Shown here piece after piece: positions 3,829-62,948 of a DNA stretch of 64,000 nucleotides (the stretch's first letter is position 1; each line of letters opens with the position of its first letter). A program made the translations under genes and the position numbers. Origin of the DNA: a bacterium. GTDB lineage: Bacteria; Bacteroidota; Bacteroidia; Bacteroidales; WCHB1-69. The stretch lies in the NCBI GenBank assembly GCA_963643165.1, contig CAVIJD010000003.1:9213-73212 (forward strand). The letters are read 5' to 3'. The notes under the pieces were generated by a model that did not search any database, was not told the origin of the DNA, and was given only the letters and a program-made list of their open reading frames with translations.

Positions 3829-6800
3829 TTACAATATCACCAGTTTTTCTATTTTTTCTGCAATTTCGCCGTTTTGGTTGCGAACGCGAAGCCGGTACAT
3901 GTAAACGCCGCGTCCTATTTTGTCGCCATAGTCGTCAAGTCCGTCCCACGGGATTCCGGCGCACCTGTTCCCTTCGATAAGTTGCGTTGTGTTAATGGTT
4001 TTCAGCAATTTGCCCGAGATGGTGTAAATCTGAACCTGTATGTCAAATTCGCCGCCGTTCTGGTTCTGCTCGAAGAAGAACGCCGTTCGGGTAGTGAAGG
4101 GGTTGGGGTAGTTGAGCACATGGCTGAGTGTCAGCGTTTCGTCAGACACGACTTCAAAGGAGAGTTCCGCCTCTGTGGGGTTGTTGTTGATGTCCCAGGC
4201 ACGCACCATGATTTTGTGCTTGCCTACGGAGATGTCGCTGAGACTATAGCGTACCGTGCCGACATTGAAGCTGTCTTTTTCGGTCTGGTAATAGTCGTTG
4301 AGCACGATTTGAGATTCGGAGGCATCGTCTAAGATGGCGACAAGGTCGTGCCCGATGCCGTTGCCTGTGGTGTTGATGCCGTAGTTGTCCTTTATCTTCG
4401 CTATCAAGACCGGATCTTGGTTGGTGATGCCGCCCTCCACGAAGTTCTCGTCGTTGAGGAAGAGTTCCACTTCCGGGCCTTTGTCGTCGGCCACGCCGGC
4501 AGAATCGACACCACCGATGATGAAGCCGGTGAAGGCGCCGGCGGCATCATAACGGTCTGTGCGTGCATAATAACTCATCTTCCCTTGCCCGAATTTGTAG
4601 TCGATGTCTTTGGGAACATAAAACGAGAAGGTGTAATGTCCGTTGCTGACGGTGCAGTTTCCCTTGAAGAGGATGCTTTTCTGGCTTTCAAAGTCAAAAG
4701 GCTGGCTGGTGGGGTCATTTGCCAAGGTGGTGACGGTCACTTTCTTGTCATATACCGACGGGAAGAGGGTGCCGTTGAAATTGTCGATGGTTTGCCCCAA
4801 GTCGTCAACCACACGTCCGCTGACGGTCACACGGGAGAGAGCCCTGACGGTGTCTTGCCGGTCGCCGACAGGCTGCCGGTTGACGGAGTCGGTCACGATC
4901 CGGTAGGTGGGGATGGCCAACGGCATGGAGGGGTCGCCCATCAGCACAAACATGGCCAGCGAGGTTGATGACCCTCCGTAGTTGTTCTTTCCGGCAATTT
5001 CAATCTCACCTATGGTCGGGTATCTGCCTTTTTCCGATTTGTCGAACATGGCGCCGAAGATGATGCGTCCGAACGAGTTGTTGGGCGATGACCAGGCTTC
5101 GCGCGAGGCCGTGATGATGGCACTGACGCCGCCGTTGCTGTTGAAGAATGCCAGTTCTGCGGGCGATACCGCAGGCCGGTCATAGAACCCGAAGGTACAC
5201 GAAAGGGTCAGCATTGCCGGCATGTTGTACTTGTTGGCCCACTTGTTGATGTCGGAGTTCTCCAACACGCGCTCGGCAGTCCAACCGTCTTTTCCGCTGT
5301 GCCCGATGTAGGTGTAGAACAGACAGCCGCGGTTCATACGGTTGTTGATGGCCGTGGTGACGTCAGGATAGCGTTGCCCGCCGGCATTCGACACCTGCGA
5401 GTAGGCGTCCAGATAGATTTTGTCAAAGTTGATGTTGCTGTTCTTGGCCTCTACGATCTTGGTGAAGTTGTCGGCGTTGCTGATGAAGTCGTTGTAGTCT
5501 TCGTCGTCGGCCACGAAAGCCATTACGTTTCGCCAGTCGCCGAAATTGGAGACAGACGTGCTGTTTTCAGAAACCAGATTGCGCCGTTCTGTGTAGCGTA
5601 TGCTTTTATCGACCGCTGTGGTGGCCTGCGCCAATGTGGAGCACGGGAAACGCCCTATGGCAATGTCATACAGCCCCGTTGCATTTGCGCCCTCTTCGTC
5701 ATCGAGCAGCCCGAAGGTGTCGTCGTTGGCATAGAAGCTGTATTCTGAGATGATGTTGCCCGACGCCGCATATTGGTAGTTGGGCACAAAGATTTCCGTG
5801 CCGCTCACCCGCCCCCGGTAGTCGTAGCAGGGACGCCCTACCAGCAGGAGGTATTTGGGCGACTGTCCCGAGGTTTTGTCGTAAATCATTTTCATATAGT
5901 CGCGGATGGCGATGGGGTCTTGCGATCCGCCGGAGAATTCGTTGTAAACCTGCTGTATGGTTGCCACCTTTACTTTGAGGCCGTCGTTCTGCTGCCGGAA
6001 GTTGGCCAGCCGGTTGGCCTGCGACAGAAAGTCGGGATGGGTCACGATGACCATATCGACGGCGCCGGTGGCGTGCAGGTTCTGGTTCTCGACGGCGCCG
6101 CCGCGTGTGACGGTCAGATACTGCGTGCCGTCGAAGGCTACGAAACGGCGCAGCACGTCCGTGTTTGCCTTAAAGGAGCCTGTGCCGCTGCCCAACGCCA
6201 GTTTGCAGCGCACCGCTTCCGAGGGGTCCGTAACGTCCCATACTTGCGTGCTCTGGTCTGCGCCGCCGATGTTGAACTGCGTGACACTGCCCTCACGCAC
6301 GGTGGCGGGGTTGCAGAAAGAAAACTGGGCGGCGTTCATGGTCAGCGAACAGGGCATCTCTACCTCTATCCAGTTGAGGTAGGCCGAGGAACTGGTCGAG
6401 GGCTTGCTGTAGGTCAACGTTACCGAAATCGCGCTCCCGTTGGGGGTGAAGTTGAGGTCCTGACGGTTCAGGGTCGCCATGGAGCCGGTTTGAAGCCCTC
6501 TGACGCTGACGTTGCCTATGGCGTTGCCGTTAACGCTGACCCTCATGGTAGAGTAACTGTTGGAAACGCCCGCCACTGCCACGGACAAGCGCCCCTGCGC
6601 AAGGCTCTGGCCGGGAGCCGTGAAAGTGTAAGACCGCTCGGTTGTGATGTCGAACAGGTCGCCGAACCAGTCTTTCCCGCTCTCCCCGAAATTGTAGAGG
6701 TCGTCTTCGTGAAAGTCGAAATAGGTGTATTCGCTCACCGAGGCGGTGGCGGAGAGGGCAGAATTGTCAACTGTGGCGATGCGTTTCTTCGCTCCTACGC

Positions 6801-24906: not shown

Positions 24907-24943
24907 AAGAGGGGACATCTTTTGGAGGATGTCTCCCTCTTTT
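24907..24943. terminator. Bidirectional terminator hairpin between convergent genes
   Basis: AAGAGGGGACATC(24907-19) pairs with GATGTCTCCCTCTT(24928-41), with T-runs on both strands. Confidence 0.65.
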
Positions 24944-24968: not shown

Positions 24969-26462
24969 TTATTGTTTCATGATTTTAATGTTTTGTCCGT
25001 TGACGCTGAGCAGATAGAAGCCATTTTCGAGGCTGCTCAGGTCGATGGTGGTGTTGCCGTTCATCTGCTCGGTGCGAACCAGCTTGCCCGAGATGTCATA
25101 GAGGTACGCCACAGTCACTGTTTCGCCGCAGACGATGGTACAGCGGTCGGACACGGGGTTGGGATAGACGGCGATGTGGGCTTTTTCGGCAGGGTTCTCT
25201 CTGACGGCGGCAGGCATCCAGCCGTTGAGCACGGCCACACCCGACAAGTCAAAGCCGCTGCTGGCGAATGGGGTGGGGTAAGGGTCGTTGATGATTTGCC
25301 CGTACTGGTCGCGGGTGCCGTATTGCGGGTCAATGGAGCCTACGACATCCACAAGTCGCACGTGTGTGATGTTGTTGATGTCGATGCCAGTGCTGTCGGC
25401 AAGCTGCGCCAAGTCAAAGGGCGTTCCCCAGCCGATGCGGTACTTGCCGGCGAGGTTGTTGATTTTGGTGGCGTCAACGCTGCCGCCATTGCCGATTTGT
25501 GTGCTGTCTTGTGTGTTTGAGGTGGCGGGAAAGCGAACATAACGCTCACCGTCAGAACTTACTTCCACGAAGGCCAACTCCAAGAAGGTATCGTTCAGTG
25601 CGTTCTCGAATACGGCAAAGTCGTAGCCGTCGCCGTCCTGAATGGGCAGGCTGAAGGTGAGCACGGCCGTGCCGCCGTCGCCAAGGCTAACCACACCGCT
25701 GGTGGTGACGCTCGAGGCTGCCCCAATGCCGTCTTCTTCAGTGCCGTAGGTGGCTAAAACGGAAGGGATGGCGATGTCTTGATAGCCGCGCGTGATTTGG
25801 CATCCCGTGGCCCAGCCTAAGATGGTGGGGTCTTCGCAATGGATGGCCTGACACCCCGGCGTGCCTACAATGCCGTCAAACAGCGTGTCAGGAGAGATGG
25901 GCGTTGGCGGTGTAGGGGGCGTAGGGGGCGTGACGGTGTCCGGGACCTGATTTGGGTCGCTTACATAGTAGAGGGTGGCATTGTCAAAGGTGCAGTCGCC
26001 CCATTCCTGCAGACTGAAGTCTGCACCGGTCTGCAATTGGTCGCCAAGTCCGCTGTACCAATGGTCTCCGCTTGAGTAGGTCAACATTCCGCCAGTGATG
26101 GCGAGGTTGTAGGCGGAGTCTTGATAGGTTACGCTTTCTACCCAACTGGTGACGCTTACGTTGATACGGCTGTCGGCAGCATTCAGTTCGTTGAAAAACT
26201 CCTGTACGGTCTTCGAGCCGTTCCAGGCATAGCCGTAAACTACCCCGACGGGATTGTCATTGTTGCAAAAGTAGAAACCTGCGGCAATGCGGTTGCTGCC
26301 TTGCCCGACCCAATATTGGATTTGTGCAGTGTCAACTACGGTCGTGACGGCTTTGACACCAGGCCTGAATTTGGCCCCGCCGTTCTGGTACGGGTACGGC
26401 GTCTGGGCAGAAAGGATACTTGCAAGAAACAGGATTGCAAGAAATAAGATGTTCTTTTTCAT
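24969..26462 (-). CDS. T9SS-sorted (type A CTD) secreted protein of unknown function, two domains joined by a Pro/Thr linker
   Basis: 497 aa with signal peptide MKKNILFLAILFLASILSAQ. The linker is PDTVTPPTPPTPPTPISPD. The C-terminal VYPNPVSDRCTIV...LYDISGKLV...LENGFYLLSVNGQNIKIMKQ is a T9SS CTD. The gene is last in the riboswitch-controlled unit. Confidence 0.7.
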   Translation of the reverse strand: MKKNILFLAILFLASILSAQTPYPYQNGGAKFRPGVKAVTTVVDTAQIQYWVGQGSNRIAAGFYFCNNDNPVGVVYGYAWNGSKTVQEFFNELNAADSRINVSVTSWVESVTYQDSAYNLAITGGMLTYSSGDHWYSGLGDQLQTGADFSLQEWGDCTFDNATLYYVSDPNQVPDTVTPPTPPTPPTPISPDTLFDGIVGTPGCQAIHCEDPTILGWATGCQITRGYQDIAIPSVLATYGTEEDGIGAASSVTTSGVVSLGDGGTAVLTFSLPIQDGDGYDFAVFENALNDTFLELAFVEVSSDGERYVRFPATSNTQDSTQIGNGGSVDATKINNLAGKYRIGWGTPFDLAQLADSTGIDINNITHVRLVDVVGSIDPQYGTRDQYGQIINDPYPTPFASSGFDLSGVAVLNGWMPAAVRENPAEKAHIAVYPNPVSDRCTIVCGETVTVAYLYDISGKLVRTEQMNGNTTIDLSSLENGFYLLSVNGQNIKIMKQ

Positions 26463-26508: not shown

Positions 26509-27576
26509 TTAGTATTTCACCAATATTGTTCCCGGATTCAGCCCGACGGCAAACGAAAATTTCTTTTTCCCGTTCTTGTCAAAGCAGTAAACGTCCCCGT
26601 TGACGGTGAAGTCGTAGGCATCGGAGATGTAAACGTCCCCGTTGAGTTGATTGACGGCGATGCCGTAGGGGCGTTTGAGCGTTGTGCCGTCGGTGACGAA
26701 ATTCTCAGTGACGATGCCGTCGCTCTCCAAGTCCATCACCTTGATCCAGTTGTTGTAGTTGTTGTAGTCGCTGTAGTAAAGATAGGCGTATTTGCCGGCG
26801 ATGGCAAAGTTGAGCACCTCCCAGTTGTATGTTCTGATGACCTCGTCGGTTGCAGCATCGATTTTCTGAAAGTTGTATGACTCGGAGCCGTAATTCCCGC
26901 GGGAGGCCACATAGACGTATTTGTCGTCGTAACTTTGTATGATGTAAGGGTTTGTGGCGACTTCTATGGTGCGCAGCAGGGTAAAGGTGGACAGGTCGAA
27001 TACGGAGACCGTTTTGCCGTAGTTGGGAGCATTGAGGCCGCCGGAGTTGGCAACGTACAGTTTGCCGTTGCAGACGCAGACGCCCTCGGGGTTGCTGCCC
27101 GAGTGCGCCGTGGCATCTACGGTCAGGGTGGCGGTGTCGATGCGCACGATGTCGCCGTCAAAGCAGCTGACGTATGCTTTGTCGCGGTAAAAGGTCAGCC
27201 GCCGCGGCTGCTTGCCGTTCAGTTGGATGGCCTTGATGGACTTGGCATCCGACGGGTTCATCACATCCACACGGTTTGAGTTGTTGATGACGCAGTACAA
27301 CTTGCCGCCGTATAGTTGCAGGTCGTTGCCGGTGTCGCCAAGGCCGCGTCCGTTGCTCTCAAGAAAGATGTCATTCGTCAAGTTGTTGGCGGTGAAGTCA
27401 TAGTAGGTCAGCGTGCTGTTGTTATGCTGGTAGAGCCCCTCATTGAGCACATAGACCCCCTCCGCCTGGTAATCGACTGGCGGGGTGTTAGGGGTTTGAG
27501 GCTCGGGCGGGTTGCAGGATGCCGCAAGCCAGATGCCCAAAAGGAGAAATACGGTTCGCTTTAATGTCAGTTTCAT
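26509..27576 (-). CDS. YncE/DUF5074-like beta-propeller surface lipoprotein (BtuG-like candidate)
   Basis: ORF 26509..27600. The likely start is the ATG at 27576 (MKLTLKRTVFLLLGIWLAASC lipobox). Blade-like repeats recur: VYVLNEG, LYCVINNSNRVDVM, AYVSCFDGDIVRID, LYVANSGG, VYVASRGNYG, DVYISDAYD. The gene is directly downstream of a cobalamin riboswitch. Confidence 0.7.
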   Translation of the reverse strand: MKLTLKRTVFLLLGIWLAASCNPPEPQTPNTPPVDYQAEGVYVLNEGLYQHNNSTLTYYDFTANNLTNDIFLESNGRGLGDTGNDLQLYGGKLYCVINNSNRVDVMNPSDAKSIKAIQLNGKQPRRLTFYRDKAYVSCFDGDIVRIDTATLTVDATAHSGSNPEGVCVCNGKLYVANSGGLNAPNYGKTVSVFDLSTFTLLRTIEVATNPYIIQSYDDKYVYVASRGNYGSESYNFQKIDAATDEVIRTYNWEVLNFAIAGKYAYLYYSDYNNYNNWIKVMDLESDGIVTENFVTDGTTLKRPYGIAVNQLNGDVYISDAYDFTVNGDVYCFDKNGKKKFSFAVGLNPGTILVKY

Positions 27577-27689
27577 TTCCTTCGCATTTTTTATCCACAA
27601 ATATGCTTCGGGGAAAGTGGAAACTGCTCTGGACGGAATGTCCTGAAGTTTTTCTCGCCACGACCAGCCTACCTCCCGAAGCGGTCAAC

Positions 27690-27845
27690 AACTGTCTGCA
27701 GGCAGGTTTTCTGACTTGTTTCTTCCGCAATGTCTTCCCATCATGCGACAGTGACAAAGGTACTGCGGAAACGTATGAAACTTACAGCAGCGGGTACTGT
27801 ACAGGATTTGCACCTGTTTCCCTTTCAGAAATTCGCTTATGCGAA
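27690..27845 (-). promoter_or_regulatory. Cobalamin (B12) riboswitch aptamer
   Basis: The rc of 27781-27830 is TTCTGAAAGGGAAACAGGTGCAAATCCTGTACAGTACCCGCTGCTGTAAG (conserved GGGAA / GGUGnAAAUCC / CCCGCnnCUGU core). The rc of 27701-27717 is AAGTCAGAAAACCTGCC (B12 box). CACTGTCGCATGATGGGAAGAC lies between them. Confidence 0.8.
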
Positions 27846-27866
27846 CTCTTCACCTGAAAACGGCGA

Positions 27867-27874
27867 CAAAAATA
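27867..27874 (-). promoter_or_regulatory. -7 promoter box (rc TATTTTTG) driving the riboswitch leader
   Basis: + strand caaaaata; the reverse complement matches TAnnTTTG. It lies between the TBDR stop (27893-27895) and the aptamer. Confidence 0.5.
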
Positions 27875-27892
27875 GAAAAAAAAGTGTCCGGT

Positions 27893-30379
27893 TCAGAACT
27901 CTACAGAAAATTTAACATTGACAAGCCGTCCGGTCAGGTAGTTGGGCACGGGATATCTGTTGTTGTCGATGTCAGAGAACCACGAATAGGAGGAGATGTT
28001 GTTGATGCCGAGGAGGTTGAAAACCTCGATATAGACACCGGCGTTTTTGATGCTGCGGACGAATTTCGACTTGTTGCGCATACGGTCGCGGCTCTGTTCC
28101 AGAATCATGAACGAAAAGCCGAGGTCTATGCGGCGGTACCAGGTGTGGTCGCGCAGCCGCTGGTAGGTGACGCCGTCGTCGGGACCGTAAGGCAAGCCGG
28201 TGGCAAAAACGAAATTAAGGTGCGCCCTGAACTGCGGGTATCCGGGGATGTGGTCTTGAAAGAAGAGGTTGAAGGCAAATCGTTGGTCGGTGGGGCGCGG
28301 AATGTAGCCCGTCTGCGCGGTTTCCCCGTCAACGTCGGTGTAGGTGATGTTCTCTTCCGTCTTCAGCAGTGAGACGGAGAGCCACGACTCGAGGCCGCGT
28401 ATGAACTCGCCGCTGACTTTGAGGTCCAGTCCGGTGGCGTACCCCACGGCGTCGTTTTCGCCACTGTAGGTGATGCGCACGTTGTCAACGTTGTAGGAGA
28501 TGAGCCGGTCAAGGTATTTGTAATAGGCTTCGGCGGTGAATTTGAATGGCCGCCGCCACAGGCTGAAGTTATATTCGCTGCCCAGCACAACTTGGAAAGA
28601 GCGCTGCGAGCGGATGTCCGGGTTGAGTGTTCCGTCACGGTGACGCATTTCGCGATAGAATGCCGGCTGGTAATAGAGGCCGGTGCGCAGCGAAAACAGC
28701 CAGTCGTGCCGCCATTGCGGGTTGTAGATGAAGGAGAGACGGGGCGAGACGGTGAACTCTTTTTTGTTGTAGGTCCAATAGTGAAAGCGCACGCCGCCGT
28801 TCAGCATGTAGTGCGGCATGCTGTCGCCGTCGATGTTCCACTGGTCTTGTATGAAGCCGGAGAAGCGGAATGTGCTCAAGCGGTTGGCGGACTGCAGGAA
28901 GCTGTTGTCTCCAAAGATGAGCCGGCGCGACGGGTCGTCCAACGGCACGTCTATGCCTATGGTCTCCTGTATGAAAGGCAGGGTATAGCCGGCGGAGTCG
29001 TTCATAGTCCACTCGCGGATGCGGTCGTCGATGTACTCGTGCTGCGCCTTTACTCCCCAGCTGATCGTGTTGGATGCCGGCAAGGTGTGCTCGCCGCGCA
29101 GGTCGGCGGCGGATACTATGGAGGTGATGTAGTTGCGGGCATGCTCCAGATAGCTGCCGATACCCCGGGTGTAGGTTTCATTGACGGTGCCCTCGGCAAT
29201 GTCAAGCTCAATGTCGCTGAAACGGTATTGCCCTAAGATGTCGTAGGTTTCGCTCTCTTGGGCATAGTAGGACGAGAAGGTCAGTTTCAGGCGGTTCCGA
29301 CGGTTCGGCGTGTAGGCGAACGTGAGCCCGCCGAGGTAGTTTTCGTAACGGTCCACCTCCTGCCCCTCAAAATAGACGGTGAACTGCTTGAAGTCGGAGA
29401 TGGAGCCGAAGCGCGTCTGCTTGTTGGACGGCTGGTAGATGTAGCTGTTGCGGGTGAAGATGCCCAGCAGGCTGATGCTGAACTTGTCGGTGATGTCCCA
29501 CTTGAGGAGCATCTGCGTGTCGAAGAAGCGCGGTTTGTAGTCGCCCGTGTCGCCGCTTACGCGCATGGATTTCAGGAGGTAGGCGTTCGACTTGAAGCGA
29601 GCGCCGACGAGGAACGAGAAGCAGCTGTCAACACGCCCCTCGGCGTGGACGGACGCGCCGAGCAGACTGGCGGAGACGGAGCCGCCGTACTGCGTGGGCT
29701 CTTTGTACTGCACGTCAAGCACCGACGACATCTTGTCGCCGTACTTGGCCTCGAAGCCGCCGGCAGAGAAGACAACGTTGCCCGTAAGGTCGGGATTTAC
29801 AAAACTCATGCCCTCTTGCTGGGCGTTGCGCACCAGAAAAGGCCGGTATATCTGGATGTCGTTGACGAAGACAAGGTTTTCGTCATAGTTGCCGCCGCGC
29901 ACATTGTACTGCGAACTCAATTCGTTGGACGAGGAGGTGCCGGGCAGCATCTTGATGAGCGACTCCATGCCGCCCGTGGCAGACGGCATCTGAAACGACA
30001 ACCGGGGATTTACCCGCACATAGCCGTTCTCACTGCGGCTCTGTATGTTCACTTGCTCCAAACGGTTGCCCACAGTGGCAAGCACAACCATAAGCACGGC
30101 GGTCTCCTTGGACTTGAGACGCATGTTGAGCAGGGTGTCTTTGTGGCTGATCTGCTGAAAATAGAGACGTAAGTCGGTTTCGGCAGGCACACTTAACGAG
30201 AACTGCCCGTAGTCGTTGGTGATGGTCTGGAGACTGTGGTCCAACACGCGGATGACGACGTTTTCAATAGGTTGGCCATATTCGTCAACAACAGACCCCT
30301 TTACGATGGCCTTCTGCCCGTAAGTTGTACCGGCAAACAGCATCGTTGCGAAGAGCAGAAACAATATTCTATGTCTCAA
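27893..30379 (-). CDS. TonB-dependent receptor with N-terminal carboxypeptidase-regulatory-like domain
   Basis: ORF 27893..30430. KAIVKGSVVDEYGQPIENVVIRVLD is a CarboxypepD_reg-like domain, followed by plug (VRGGNYDENLVFVNDIQIYRP) and barrel regions ending ...LVNVKFSVEF. There is no ATG upstream of the signal peptide. Candidate starts are TTG at 30379 (giving (M)RHRILFLLFATMLFAGTTYGQ) or TTG at 30430. Confidence 0.85.
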   Translation of the reverse strand: MRHRILFLLFATMLFAGTTYGQKAIVKGSVVDEYGQPIENVVIRVLDHSLQTITNDYGQFSLSVPAETDLRLYFQQISHKDTLLNMRLKSKETAVLMVVLATVGNRLEQVNIQSRSENGYVRVNPRLSFQMPSATGGMESLIKMLPGTSSSNELSSQYNVRGGNYDENLVFVNDIQIYRPFLVRNAQQEGMSFVNPDLTGNVVFSAGGFEAKYGDKMSSVLDVQYKEPTQYGGSVSASLLGASVHAEGRVDSCFSFLVGARFKSNAYLLKSMRVSGDTGDYKPRFFDTQMLLKWDITDKFSISLLGIFTRNSYIYQPSNKQTRFGSISDFKQFTVYFEGQEVDRYENYLGGLTFAYTPNRRNRLKLTFSSYYAQESETYDILGQYRFSDIELDIAEGTVNETYTRGIGSYLEHARNYITSIVSAADLRGEHTLPASNTISWGVKAQHEYIDDRIREWTMNDSAGYTLPFIQETIGIDVPLDDPSRRLIFGDNSFLQSANRLSTFRFSGFIQDQWNIDGDSMPHYMLNGGVRFHYWTYNKKEFTVSPRLSFIYNPQWRHDWLFSLRTGLYYQPAFYREMRHRDGTLNPDIRSQRSFQVVLGSEYNFSLWRRPFKFTAEAYYKYLDRLISYNVDNVRITYSGENDAVGYATGLDLKVSGEFIRGLESWLSVSLLKTEENITYTDVDGETAQTGYIPRPTDQRFAFNLFFQDHIPGYPQFRAHLNFVFATGLPYGPDDGVTYQRLRDHTWYRRIDLGFSFMILEQSRDRMRNKSKFVRSIKNAGVYIEVFNLLGINNISSYSWFSDIDNNRYPVPNYLTGRLVNVKFSVEF

Positions 30380-30448
30380 TGTCAGGTGTCTGTTTTTTTG
30401 CTGAAAAATATATACGGCCAAATTCCGCAATTATTGCATGACGGGGTG

Positions 30449-30489
30449 CAAAAAAAAACTGCTGCAACAGGAACTCCATTACAGCAGTT
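30449..30489 (-). terminator. Rho-independent terminator after rpmB
   Basis: The minus strand reads AACTGCTG..(loop)..CAGCAGTT (30489-30482 / 30464-30457), followed by T8 (rc of A-run 30451-30458). Confidence 0.7.
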
Positions 30490-30517: not shown

Positions 30518-30751
30518 TTAGAGGTTACCTTTCTCTGCGGCTTCTACCAGACATTGGAAGATGCCTTTCTTGTTGATGTTGCGCATGCCATGTGCAGAAA
30601 CCTTGAGATAAATCCATTCGTCCAACTCGGGAACGTAGAATTTCTTTGTATGCAGATTGGGCTTGAATGTTCTTTTTGTTTTGATATTAGAGTGGGATAC
30701 GTTATTTCCGACCACTGCTTTCTTACCTGTAATTTGACAAACTCGTGACAT
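30518..30751 (-). CDS. rpmB: 50S ribosomal protein L28
   Basis: The true start is [33 protein letters not shown]... at 30751. The upstream part of the 101-aa ORF is a spurious extension. Confidence 0.92.
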
Positions 30752-30797: not shown

Positions 30798-30805
30798 CAA
30801 AAATA
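30798..30805 (-). promoter_or_regulatory. -7 promoter box (rc TATTTTTG) for rpmB
   Basis: + strand caaaaata, 47 nt upstream of the ATG at 30751. Confidence 0.5.
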
Positions 30806-62555: not shown

Positions 62556-62948
62556 GGGGCCGTTTGGTTTTGACAGCAAGTTCGGGGGATTGTAAGCAAG
62601 TCGGAGTTTGTGAGCCGAATCCGTTAAAAGTCAACTCTCGATGCCAATAAATGGCGAAACTTCATATTCATTCGCAGCGTAAGCGTTGCGAATCCCGCCG
62701 CACAGACAAGGTCTGCAGCCGCGGGCGCTTCCCCGGAAGTTCCTCGGTCCAACGTCCGGCCCAGAAGTGTCATAAAGGGACTGATAGTCTGTATAGGCTT
62801 CGATATACGGGCGAAAACTAAGAAGATACGCGGCTGCCAGGCCTGTTCCGTGCCATGCGGCCGCCGACAATCCAAACGAGAACTAAACTTGTAGAAAGCA
62901 GTCTTGCGGCATGTTTGGACGAGGGTTCGACTCCCTCCGGCTCCACCA
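62556..62948 (+). ncRNA. ssrA: tmRNA (SsrA)
   Basis: The 5' GGGGCCG(62556-62) pairs with CGGCTCC plus ACCA at the 3' end, including a G3:U wobble. The T-arm is GAGGG TTCGACT CCCTC (62921-62937). The tag ORF GGC GAA ACT TCA TAT TCA TTC GCA GCG TAA (62653-62682) encodes GETSYSFAA. The length of 393 nt is typical. Confidence 0.9.

Follow-up and report, generated by a model that had tools for sequence, protein, structure and literature searches.

A cobalamin riboswitch between a TonB-dependent receptor-like gene and a btuG homologue in a Bacteroidales genome: a probable B12-repressed switch with its own promoter

The window analysed here is a stretch of 64,000 nucleotides of Bacteroidales DNA, in which a cobalamin riboswitch occupies the gap between two protein-coding genes. 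The riboswitch, its target genes and its upstream neighbours all lie on the minus strand. On the upstream side stands a gene for an 845-aa protein resembling TonB-dependent receptors (TBDR-like), which ends with a TGA stop codon at 27895..27893. It follows rpmB (30751..30518), which is preceded by a TATTTTTG box at 30805..30798, found by pattern match, and has a strong terminator-like hairpin after it, at 30489..30457. Downstream of the riboswitch lie the two regulated genes, gene 1 (26509..27576; 355 aa), a btuG homologue, and gene 2 (24969..26462; 497 aa), recognised as coding for a T9SS-exported protein by its Por_Secre_tail domain. A scan for terminators placed a terminator-like hairpin at 24914..24933, which is the probable end of the riboswitch unit; a convergent gene lies beyond it.

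Gene 1 was assigned by homology. Its product begins with a signal peptide of the lipoprotein type that ends in LAASC (N-terminus MKLTLKRTVFLLLGIWLAASC), matches the Pfam family DUF5074 (E 9.9e-16), and has PDB entry 8blw_B as its closest solved relative (E 6.3e-81), followed by the BtuG2/G3 structures at ~E 1e-20 to 1e-23. Entry 8BLW is the BtuB1-BtuG1 complex of B. thetaiotaomicron (PMC10404256). The predicted product of gene 1 is a BtuG1-type B12-capturing surface lipoprotein. This BtuG is without a visible partner here, because tblastn with four BtuB-like queries found no BtuB-like gene within the 64-kb window. Related loci are referred to below by their L numbers; a search of metagenome contigs for a B12 box with the P13 motif behind it yielded 79 loci. 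The riboswitch stands directly 5′ of btuG homologues in L001-3, L005, L006, L008, L009, L099, L100 and L106-L108, and its placement 5′ of a gene of B12-uptake type recurs in more than 40 loci.

The TBDR-like gene upstream was considered as a possible BtuB partner or member of the B12 regulon. In its product a CarboxypepD_reg domain is recognised, and a match to Plug is borderline (23.4 bits, with a cutoff of 23.9). No relative was found for it in the PDB by sequence, nor does it resemble the BtuB-like proteins encoded at related loci. Homologues number in the thousands at 55-76% identity, and the few with a name go by TonB-dependent receptor or hypothetical protein. The gene directly follows rpmB in all eight independent contexts as well as in the window. 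Its downstream neighbours vary, with FecCD/ABC found once, unrelated genes four times, and btuG in one sublineage only. Members of this sublineage with the riboswitch are the window, L001-L003, L005, L099/L100 and L108; those without it are L004, L007 and L104, where btuG begins 10-55 nt after the TBDR-like gene. A role as BtuB partner or in the B12 regulon was rejected, given the empty PDB and BtuB comparisons, the linkage to rpmB and the variable downstream genes. We conclude that it is a conserved core gene to which the riboswitch-btuG cassette is merely adjacent.

The earlier note on this DNA had read a cobalamin riboswitch directly from the minus strand, and its reading is borne out by a cmscan search against Rfam. 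The match to RF00174 (Cobalamin) at 27684..27872 scores 93.2 bits, exceeding the gathering score of 31.5 by a wide margin, with an E-value of 7.1e-22 and coverage of model positions 1-189 of 189. An Rfam 15 scan of the full window gave two above-threshold matches, this one and a tmRNA at 62556-62948, and hence no second cobalamin riboswitch within the 64 kb. The motifs quoted in the earlier note were all found at the positions given there when 27400-28000 was read on the minus strand. They comprise the small hairpin TTCGC-ATAA-GCGAA (27845..27832), which is P2 in the Rfam alignment, the conserved core GAAAGGGAAACAGGTGCAAATCCTGTACAGTACCCGCTGCTGTAAG (27826..27781), the motif CACTGTCGCATGATGGGAAGAC after this core, and the B12 box AAGTCAGAAAACCTGCC (27717..27701), or AAGUCAGAAAACCUGCC as RNA. 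The B12 box aligns to model positions 159-175 of RF00174 with high posterior probability (PP). The junction core (GGGAA, the T-loop hairpin GGUGcAAAUCC, CCCGC and CUGUAA) and a P6 peripheral extension at 27779..27722, with CACUG...GGGAAG, are both aligned to the model with PP '*'.

Two loops make up the predicted regulatory contact. The L5 loop, UACCCG at 27791..27796, is closed by CAG/CUG in the Rfam alignment and forms the aptamer half of the kissing loop. The published consensus of L5 is UCCCG, and regulation in this class is defined by the kissing loop between L5 and L13, through which P13 is stabilised (PMC10327014). The other half was located by constrained folding, in which GACC-GCUU / AGGC-U-GGUC at 27662..27686 forms the P13 hairpin. 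Its L13 loop, CGGGAGGU at 27678..27671, contains a CGGG complementary to the CCCG of L5. This complementarity is a sequence-level result, and P13 and L13 are conserved in all close relatives. All the features that define RF00174 at the level of sequence, the kissing loop among them, are present in the element, which by these features is a genuine and ordinary RF00174-type cobalamin (corrinoid) riboswitch; we infer that it responds to its ligand.

Downstream of the B12 box, the earlier note had described an 8-bp stem between GCUUCGGG (27682..27675) and CCCGAAGC (27612..27605), which encloses 62 nt and whose last base lies 29 nt before the A of the ATG at 27576. This pairing and its distances are correct, but the P13/L13 kissing-loop hairpin (27686..27662) had been overlooked. 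The strand GCUUCGGG consists of the P13 5′ arm together with the kissing nucleotides, and since it is common to both structures, the 8-bp stem and the P13/kissing loop are mutually exclusive. For the same reason, the stem is best read as the ligand-free alternative and not as a platform hairpin of the ligand-bound state, and CCCGAAGC would in effect mimic L5. We refer to this stem as the switch helix (27605..27682) and propose that it represents the ligand-free (ON) structure. It is present in the minimum free energy (MFE) structure of the full leader and in that of the platform alone, and in the unconstrained fold it can be extended to ~28 interrupted pairs, between 27682..27652 and 27638..27605.

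The switch helix is conserved among related leaders. The RNAalifold consensus of 43 related platforms is a long-range GCUUCGG:CCGAAGC helix. Seven or more contiguous pairs to GCUUCGGG are available in 52 of the 78 unique downstream sequences, compared with 19% of shuffles, in a collection where the 5′ strand of the helix was set by the scan pattern and many sequences are related. The variants of the 3′ strand are CCGAGGC, CCGAAGU, CCCGGGGC (L002), CCUGAAGC (L003) and CCCGGAGC, and every variant observed keeps the pairing through G-U or Watson-Crick pairs. The changes are one-sided and pairing-compatible, with no true compensatory pairs, the 5′ strand having been fixed by the scan. In the MAFFT alignment of six platforms from the TBDR lineage (A3), the L108 strand is displaced by one column. 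In one group of relatives (L037, L038, L044, L057 and L090), CCCGGAGC supplies the 5′ arm of a clear intrinsic terminator in which CCCG...CGGG precedes U7, so that the switch helix would act as an anti-terminator in riboswitches of the L037/L038/L044 type.

No hairpin with a U-tract is found on the minus strand between the aptamer and the btuG ATG (27577..27700), and the terminator scan gave no terminator-like site on this strand anywhere in 27577-27892, in agreement with the earlier view that the leader has no classical terminator. A translational or RNA-stability platform, as had been suggested, is consistent with this absence and with the folds obtained when P13 is forced. Folding the leader freely and under constraint returns two mutually exclusive structures that are 2 kcal/mol apart, an ON fold at -33.8 kcal/mol and an OFF fold with a sequestor at -31.8 kcal/mol. 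For the OFF fold, P13 was forced and L13 was kept unpaired as a mimic of the ligand-bound state. The candidate sequestor helix (27568..27626) pairs CAGUUUC/UUUCC/GCAU/UUU (27626..27599) with AAA/AUGC/GGAAA/GAAACUG (27591..27568). It spans the A-rich initiation region with its A-run, the AUG of an upstream open reading frame (uORF) at 27587, and the btuG AUG at 27576. Inside it lie A residues at -3, -6 and -12 to -17 relative to AUG 27576, positions that fit the initiation signature of Bacteroidetes (PMC7366714).

The candidate sequestor is also the MFE structure of the platform alone when 37-40 nt of coding sequence are added, and with 40 nt of coding sequence the unconstrained MFE of the window's leader is already an OFF-like fold. 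Helices at the start region are found in relatives as well, namely GCAUUUC:GAAAUGC in L108, which covers the AUG, and AAGCAUAG:CUAUGCUU beside the AUG in the L105 type; no compensatory pairs were found for the candidate sequestor itself. Modelling of start-site accessibility over 46 leaders gave a mean of 0.445 for ON against 0.40 for OFF, with ON the more open in 32 leaders, where the ON constraint allowed P13 and the ON values are hence those of the unconstrained fold.

A working scheme for the switch can be drawn from these folds. With corrinoid bound, L5 (UACCCG) would pair with L13 (CGGG) and lock P13 (27686-27662), so that GCUUCGGG could no longer pair with CCCGAAGC (27612-27605). Once released, CCCGAAGC and its pyrimidine-rich flank (27626-27599) would pair with the A-rich initiation region (27591-27568), the AUGs of the uORF and of btuG would both be covered, and translation would fall. 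When ligand is absent, the 8-bp stem, extendable to ~28 pairs, would form and preclude P13, leaving the start region open. On this model, expression would be expected to stay low in the absence of B12 if CCCGAAGC were changed to GGGCAAGC. We take repression of translation to be the most likely output; co-transcriptional kinetics, Rho or RNA decay could matter, because the modelled difference in accessibility is small and the free MFE is OFF-like once coding sequence is included.

This last point leads to an alternative output step, in which the aptamer and switch work as proposed but ligand binding would leave the leader open to Rho-dependent termination or RNase attack, a form of transcriptional or stability control. 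We regard this as doubtful. It would sit well with the modest ON/OFF difference in the modelling and with a platform that is long (107 nt) and has no SD-type site to hide, and clear intrinsic terminators in close relatives within the subfamily (the L018, L037 and L053 types) point to transcriptional control in the family. The window's own platform, however, is without a hairpin plus U-tract, a helix covering both AUGs is predicted once P13 is fixed, and L108 and the L105 type also have helices at the start region. Furthermore, the Btu riboswitches of B. thetaiotaomicron have been described as repressing translation (PMC13616437), and occlusion of the start region is the output that we retain as the likeliest for the window's switch.

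Occlusion could also operate through the uORF. This consists of four codons, AUG CGA AGG AAA UGA (MRRK*; 27573..27587), and its stop codon overlaps the btuG start as AUGA; the GCAU:AUGC arm of the sequestor would hide the uORF start, and btuG would be translated mainly by termination-reinitiation at AUGA. The reading frame is confirmed in the sequence and is kept in L001, L003 and, in a longer form, L002, and six A residues precede its AUG. In L099 and L108, btuG itself starts at the corresponding AUGC, which in other subfamilies serves as an upstream AUG in frame, and a riboswitch-controlled uORF with reinitiation has been documented at ppe2 of M. tuberculosis (PMC11260477). Nevertheless, the lineage that carries the uORF amounts to four sequences, short out-of-frame AUGs near a start codon are common by chance, and the stop codon in L002 no longer overlaps the AUG. 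We think it unlikely that control runs through the uORF, and direct occlusion of the btuG start remains the preferred reading.

How the leader is transcribed can be judged from its 5′ edge. A Bacteroidetes-type -7 box, TATTTTTG (27867..27874), adjoins the 5′ edge of the aptamer. As the earlier note had placed it, the box begins 19 nt past the TGA stop of the upstream gene, with 18 nt between the two. It conforms to TAnnTTTG, which is the -7 element recognised by the primary sigma factor of Bacteroidetes (PMC7366714). A -33 TTTG element is absent from the 45 nt upstream of the box; the -33 motif is reported to be poorly conserved, and in Flavobacterium johnsoniae it was not identifiable (PMC7366714). 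The box alone would be weak evidence, and TANNTTTG is mildly enriched in the window, with 41 occurrences against 28.6 expected. What makes it convincing is that its position is fixed in relatives: TAnnTTTG stands at the 5′ edge of the aptamer in 70 of 73 distinct related upstream sequences, 138-166 nt before the B12 box, with a chance expectation of ~1.4% per sequence, the sequences not being independent of one another. The box is invariant in the alignment with L001-3 and L005 (A1), and it is kept irrespective of the upstream gene, the cassette being found behind unrelated genes.

This fixed position in 70 of 73 related riboswitches argues for the dedicated promoter that the earlier note had claimed. 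We consider it most likely that the riboswitch is transcribed from its own Bacteroidetes -7 promoter and that the RNA starts essentially at P1; the predicted transcription start site (TSS) is ~27864-27860, ~5 nt past the G of the box and at the first bases of P1. Since there is no terminator between the TBDR-like gene and the box, read-through transcripts are likely, and the riboswitch would probably act on these too. That the element is instead purely intercistronic, with no internal promoter and with transcription beginning upstream of the TBDR-like gene, is highly improbable: the short gap, the missing terminator, the mild enrichment of the box, the absent -33 TTTG and the direct adjoining of the TBDR-like gene and the btuG homologue in L004, L007 and L104, which suggests co-transcription in these riboswitch-free relatives, would all suit such an arrangement, but they are outweighed by a box that is co-located with related riboswitches whatever lies upstream, by the same TATTTTTG box at the window's rpmB promoter, and by operon 1 of B. 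thetaiotaomicron, whose internal riboswitch, just past btuH1, is described as paired with a promoter of its own and having no terminator in front of it (PMC13616437).

Taking these lines of evidence together, the best explanation as a whole, and one in which we have good confidence, is that the element is a B12-repressed OFF switch with its own promoter, which acts by occlusion of the start region and governs a two-gene unit. The unit would most likely be turned down when B12 is plentiful.

The second gene of this unit is the less familiar. The T9SS C-terminal sorting domain is the sole domain recognised by Pfam in its product, and sequence and profile searches of the PDB gave matches confined to that domain. 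Thousands of homologues exist and are unannotated. When homologues were chosen by protein similarity alone, four of four loci lay behind RF00174 riboswitches, one of them as a single-gene unit; conversely, the gene 2 family is present in most of the riboswitch-selected loci, amounting to dozens. DUF4430, the transcobalamin-like domain, is found in about half of the 33 homologues sampled, and Pfam gave no match to DUF4465. The conserved central domain of gene 2 belongs to no Pfam family and is modelled with confidence as a jelly-roll (pLDDT 84, pTM 0.87). Foldseek searches with the whole model of gene 2 returned generic beta-sandwich matches, and with the central domain the best match in the PDB by TM-score was the B12-binding lipoprotein BtuH2 (7biz_B), a weak match with E 7.6e-3 and TMq 0.45. 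The literature was searched for T9SS in combination with cobalamin riboswitches, and nothing relevant was found. Tentatively, gene 2 may belong to a so far undescribed family of rumen and gut Bacteroidales proteins that are exported by the T9SS and bind corrinoids outside the cell, although we place somewhat less than even weight on this. If true, B12 would be scavenged in these bacteria by secreted or T9SS-anchored cargo and not by the lipoproteins known from Bacteroides.

The riboswitch itself matters little, as any annotation based on Rfam would flag it, and its own promoter, its place right after an upstream gene and its btuG-type target all have published precedents in B. thetaiotaomicron. 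Its value is that of a marker. It assigns both genes behind it to the response of an uncultured Bacteroidales lineage to B12 limitation, and it points to a large unannotated family of T9SS cargo proteins as candidate corrinoid scavengers. In addition, the ~90 related leaders form a natural series in which one switching strand, the GCUUCGGG of P13/L13, works with an intrinsic terminator in some cases and with a start-region helix in others.

Among known systems, the closest parallels are with the Btu riboswitches of B. thetaiotaomicron, where an RF00174-type OFF switch likewise resides in a Bacteroidales B12-uptake locus (PMC13616437). The second riboswitch of operon 1 is located downstream of btuH1 and upstream of btuB1-btuGH-btuJ1. 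As in that case, the window's switch adjoins an upstream gene with no terminator in between, has its own promoter on our reading, and precedes a BtuG1-type target (PMC13616437, PMC10404256). The two arrangements differ in that the window's switch stands directly before btuG, with btuB absent from the unit and from the 64-kb window, in that the second gene encodes a T9SS cargo protein and not BtuH, BtuJ or BtuK, and in that the upstream gene is the unrelated, rpmB-linked TBDR-like gene.

With respect to mechanism, the proposed switch resembles the E. coli btuB and env8 HyCbl riboswitches, in which the L5-L13 interaction stabilises P13 and so favours a hairpin that hides the start (PMC10327014). 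In contrast to these, P13 in the window lies ~85 nt upstream of the AUG, a relay strand, CCCGAAGC, would alternate between the P13 5′ arm and the start region, and the target is an A-rich Bacteroidetes initiation region with no Shine-Dalgarno sequence. A further parallel exists with metE of Priestia megaterium, where a downstream strand captures part of P13 as long as no ligand is bound, and where the resulting three-way competition between P13, antiterminator and terminator has been shown in that system by compensatory mutagenesis. The window's alternative helix uses the P13 5′ arm and the L13 loop, unlike the 3′ arm used in metE, and its downstream element would be a start-region helix in place of a terminator, whereas the L037-type relatives of the window's riboswitch follow the P. 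megaterium metE design.

The 845-aa TonB-dependent-receptor-like (TBDR-like) protein encoded upstream of the riboswitch (window 27893-30430, minus strand) carries a CarboxypepD_reg domain and a borderline Plug domain, and is highly conserved across Bacteroidales at 55-76% identity; no sequence relative of it was found in the PDB. Its gene is preceded in all contexts examined by rpmB, encoding L28 (window 30518-30751, minus strand), and is followed in one relative, L096, by genes for a FecCD-type ABC importer. The rpmB promoter box, TATTTTTG at 30805..30798, is the same box as in the probable riboswitch promoter, and a strong terminator-like hairpin lies 3′ of rpmB at 30489..30457.

In three related loci (L004, L007 and L104), a btuG homologue adjoins the rpmB-linked TBDR-like gene with only 10-55 nt between them and no riboswitch (junctions at 5909-5965, 5972-5983 and 6496-6508, respectively); uvrC comes next. 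Gene order is the same in the sister locus L099/L100, where the riboswitch is present; at least one loss of the riboswitch therefore seems to have occurred among such relatives. Expression of btuG in these three loci is presumably B12-independent.

The expression platform contains a four-codon uORF, MRRK* (window 27573-27587, minus strand), whose UGA stop overlaps the btuG start codon (AUGA). L001 and L003 retain the uORF, L002 has a longer version of it, and in the loci L099 and L108 the corresponding AUGC is itself the start codon of btuG. The genomes most closely related to the window are those of L001-L003, with 86-94% protein identity over this locus. They are MAGs whose records bear the title ‘Oscillospiraceae bacterium’ or ‘bacterium’; these bins or labels look misassigned, since the locus content is typically Bacteroidales (T9SS cargo, BtuG and TAnnTTTG promoters). 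Elsewhere, the window holds a full-length tmRNA gene at 62556-62948 (plus strand; RF00023, 145.8 bits).

Four relatives (L006, L040, L047 and L087) have a pair of same-subfamily cobalamin riboswitches on one strand, 2.5-3.6 kb apart (1669-1852 and 5246-5430 in L006), the first 5′ of btuG and the second 5′ of T9SS-family genes. The two share their leader sequence up to the start codon and past it (AUGCGUUUAUGG), which suggests that the whole regulatory cassette was duplicated. In two unrelated loci, Cas9-like genes (∼1415 aa) lie directly 3′ of the riboswitch-btuG unit (L005, 7249-11508; L106, 9097-14382, here accompanied by cas1 and cas2), which is probably coincidence.

The 497-aa T9SS-exported protein encoded behind the riboswitch (window 24969-26462, minus strand) is a member of a very large family that lacks annotation, with homologues in the related loci L105-L108 and in many of L006-L095; the family appears to be linked consistently to cobalamin riboswitches. 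DUF4430 is present in about half of the homologues sampled (n = 33). No Pfam family corresponds to the conserved central domain (residues 195-425), whose Foldseek comparison gave a weak match to the B12-binding lipoprotein BtuH2 (7biz_B), and the protein is a candidate secreted corrinoid binder.
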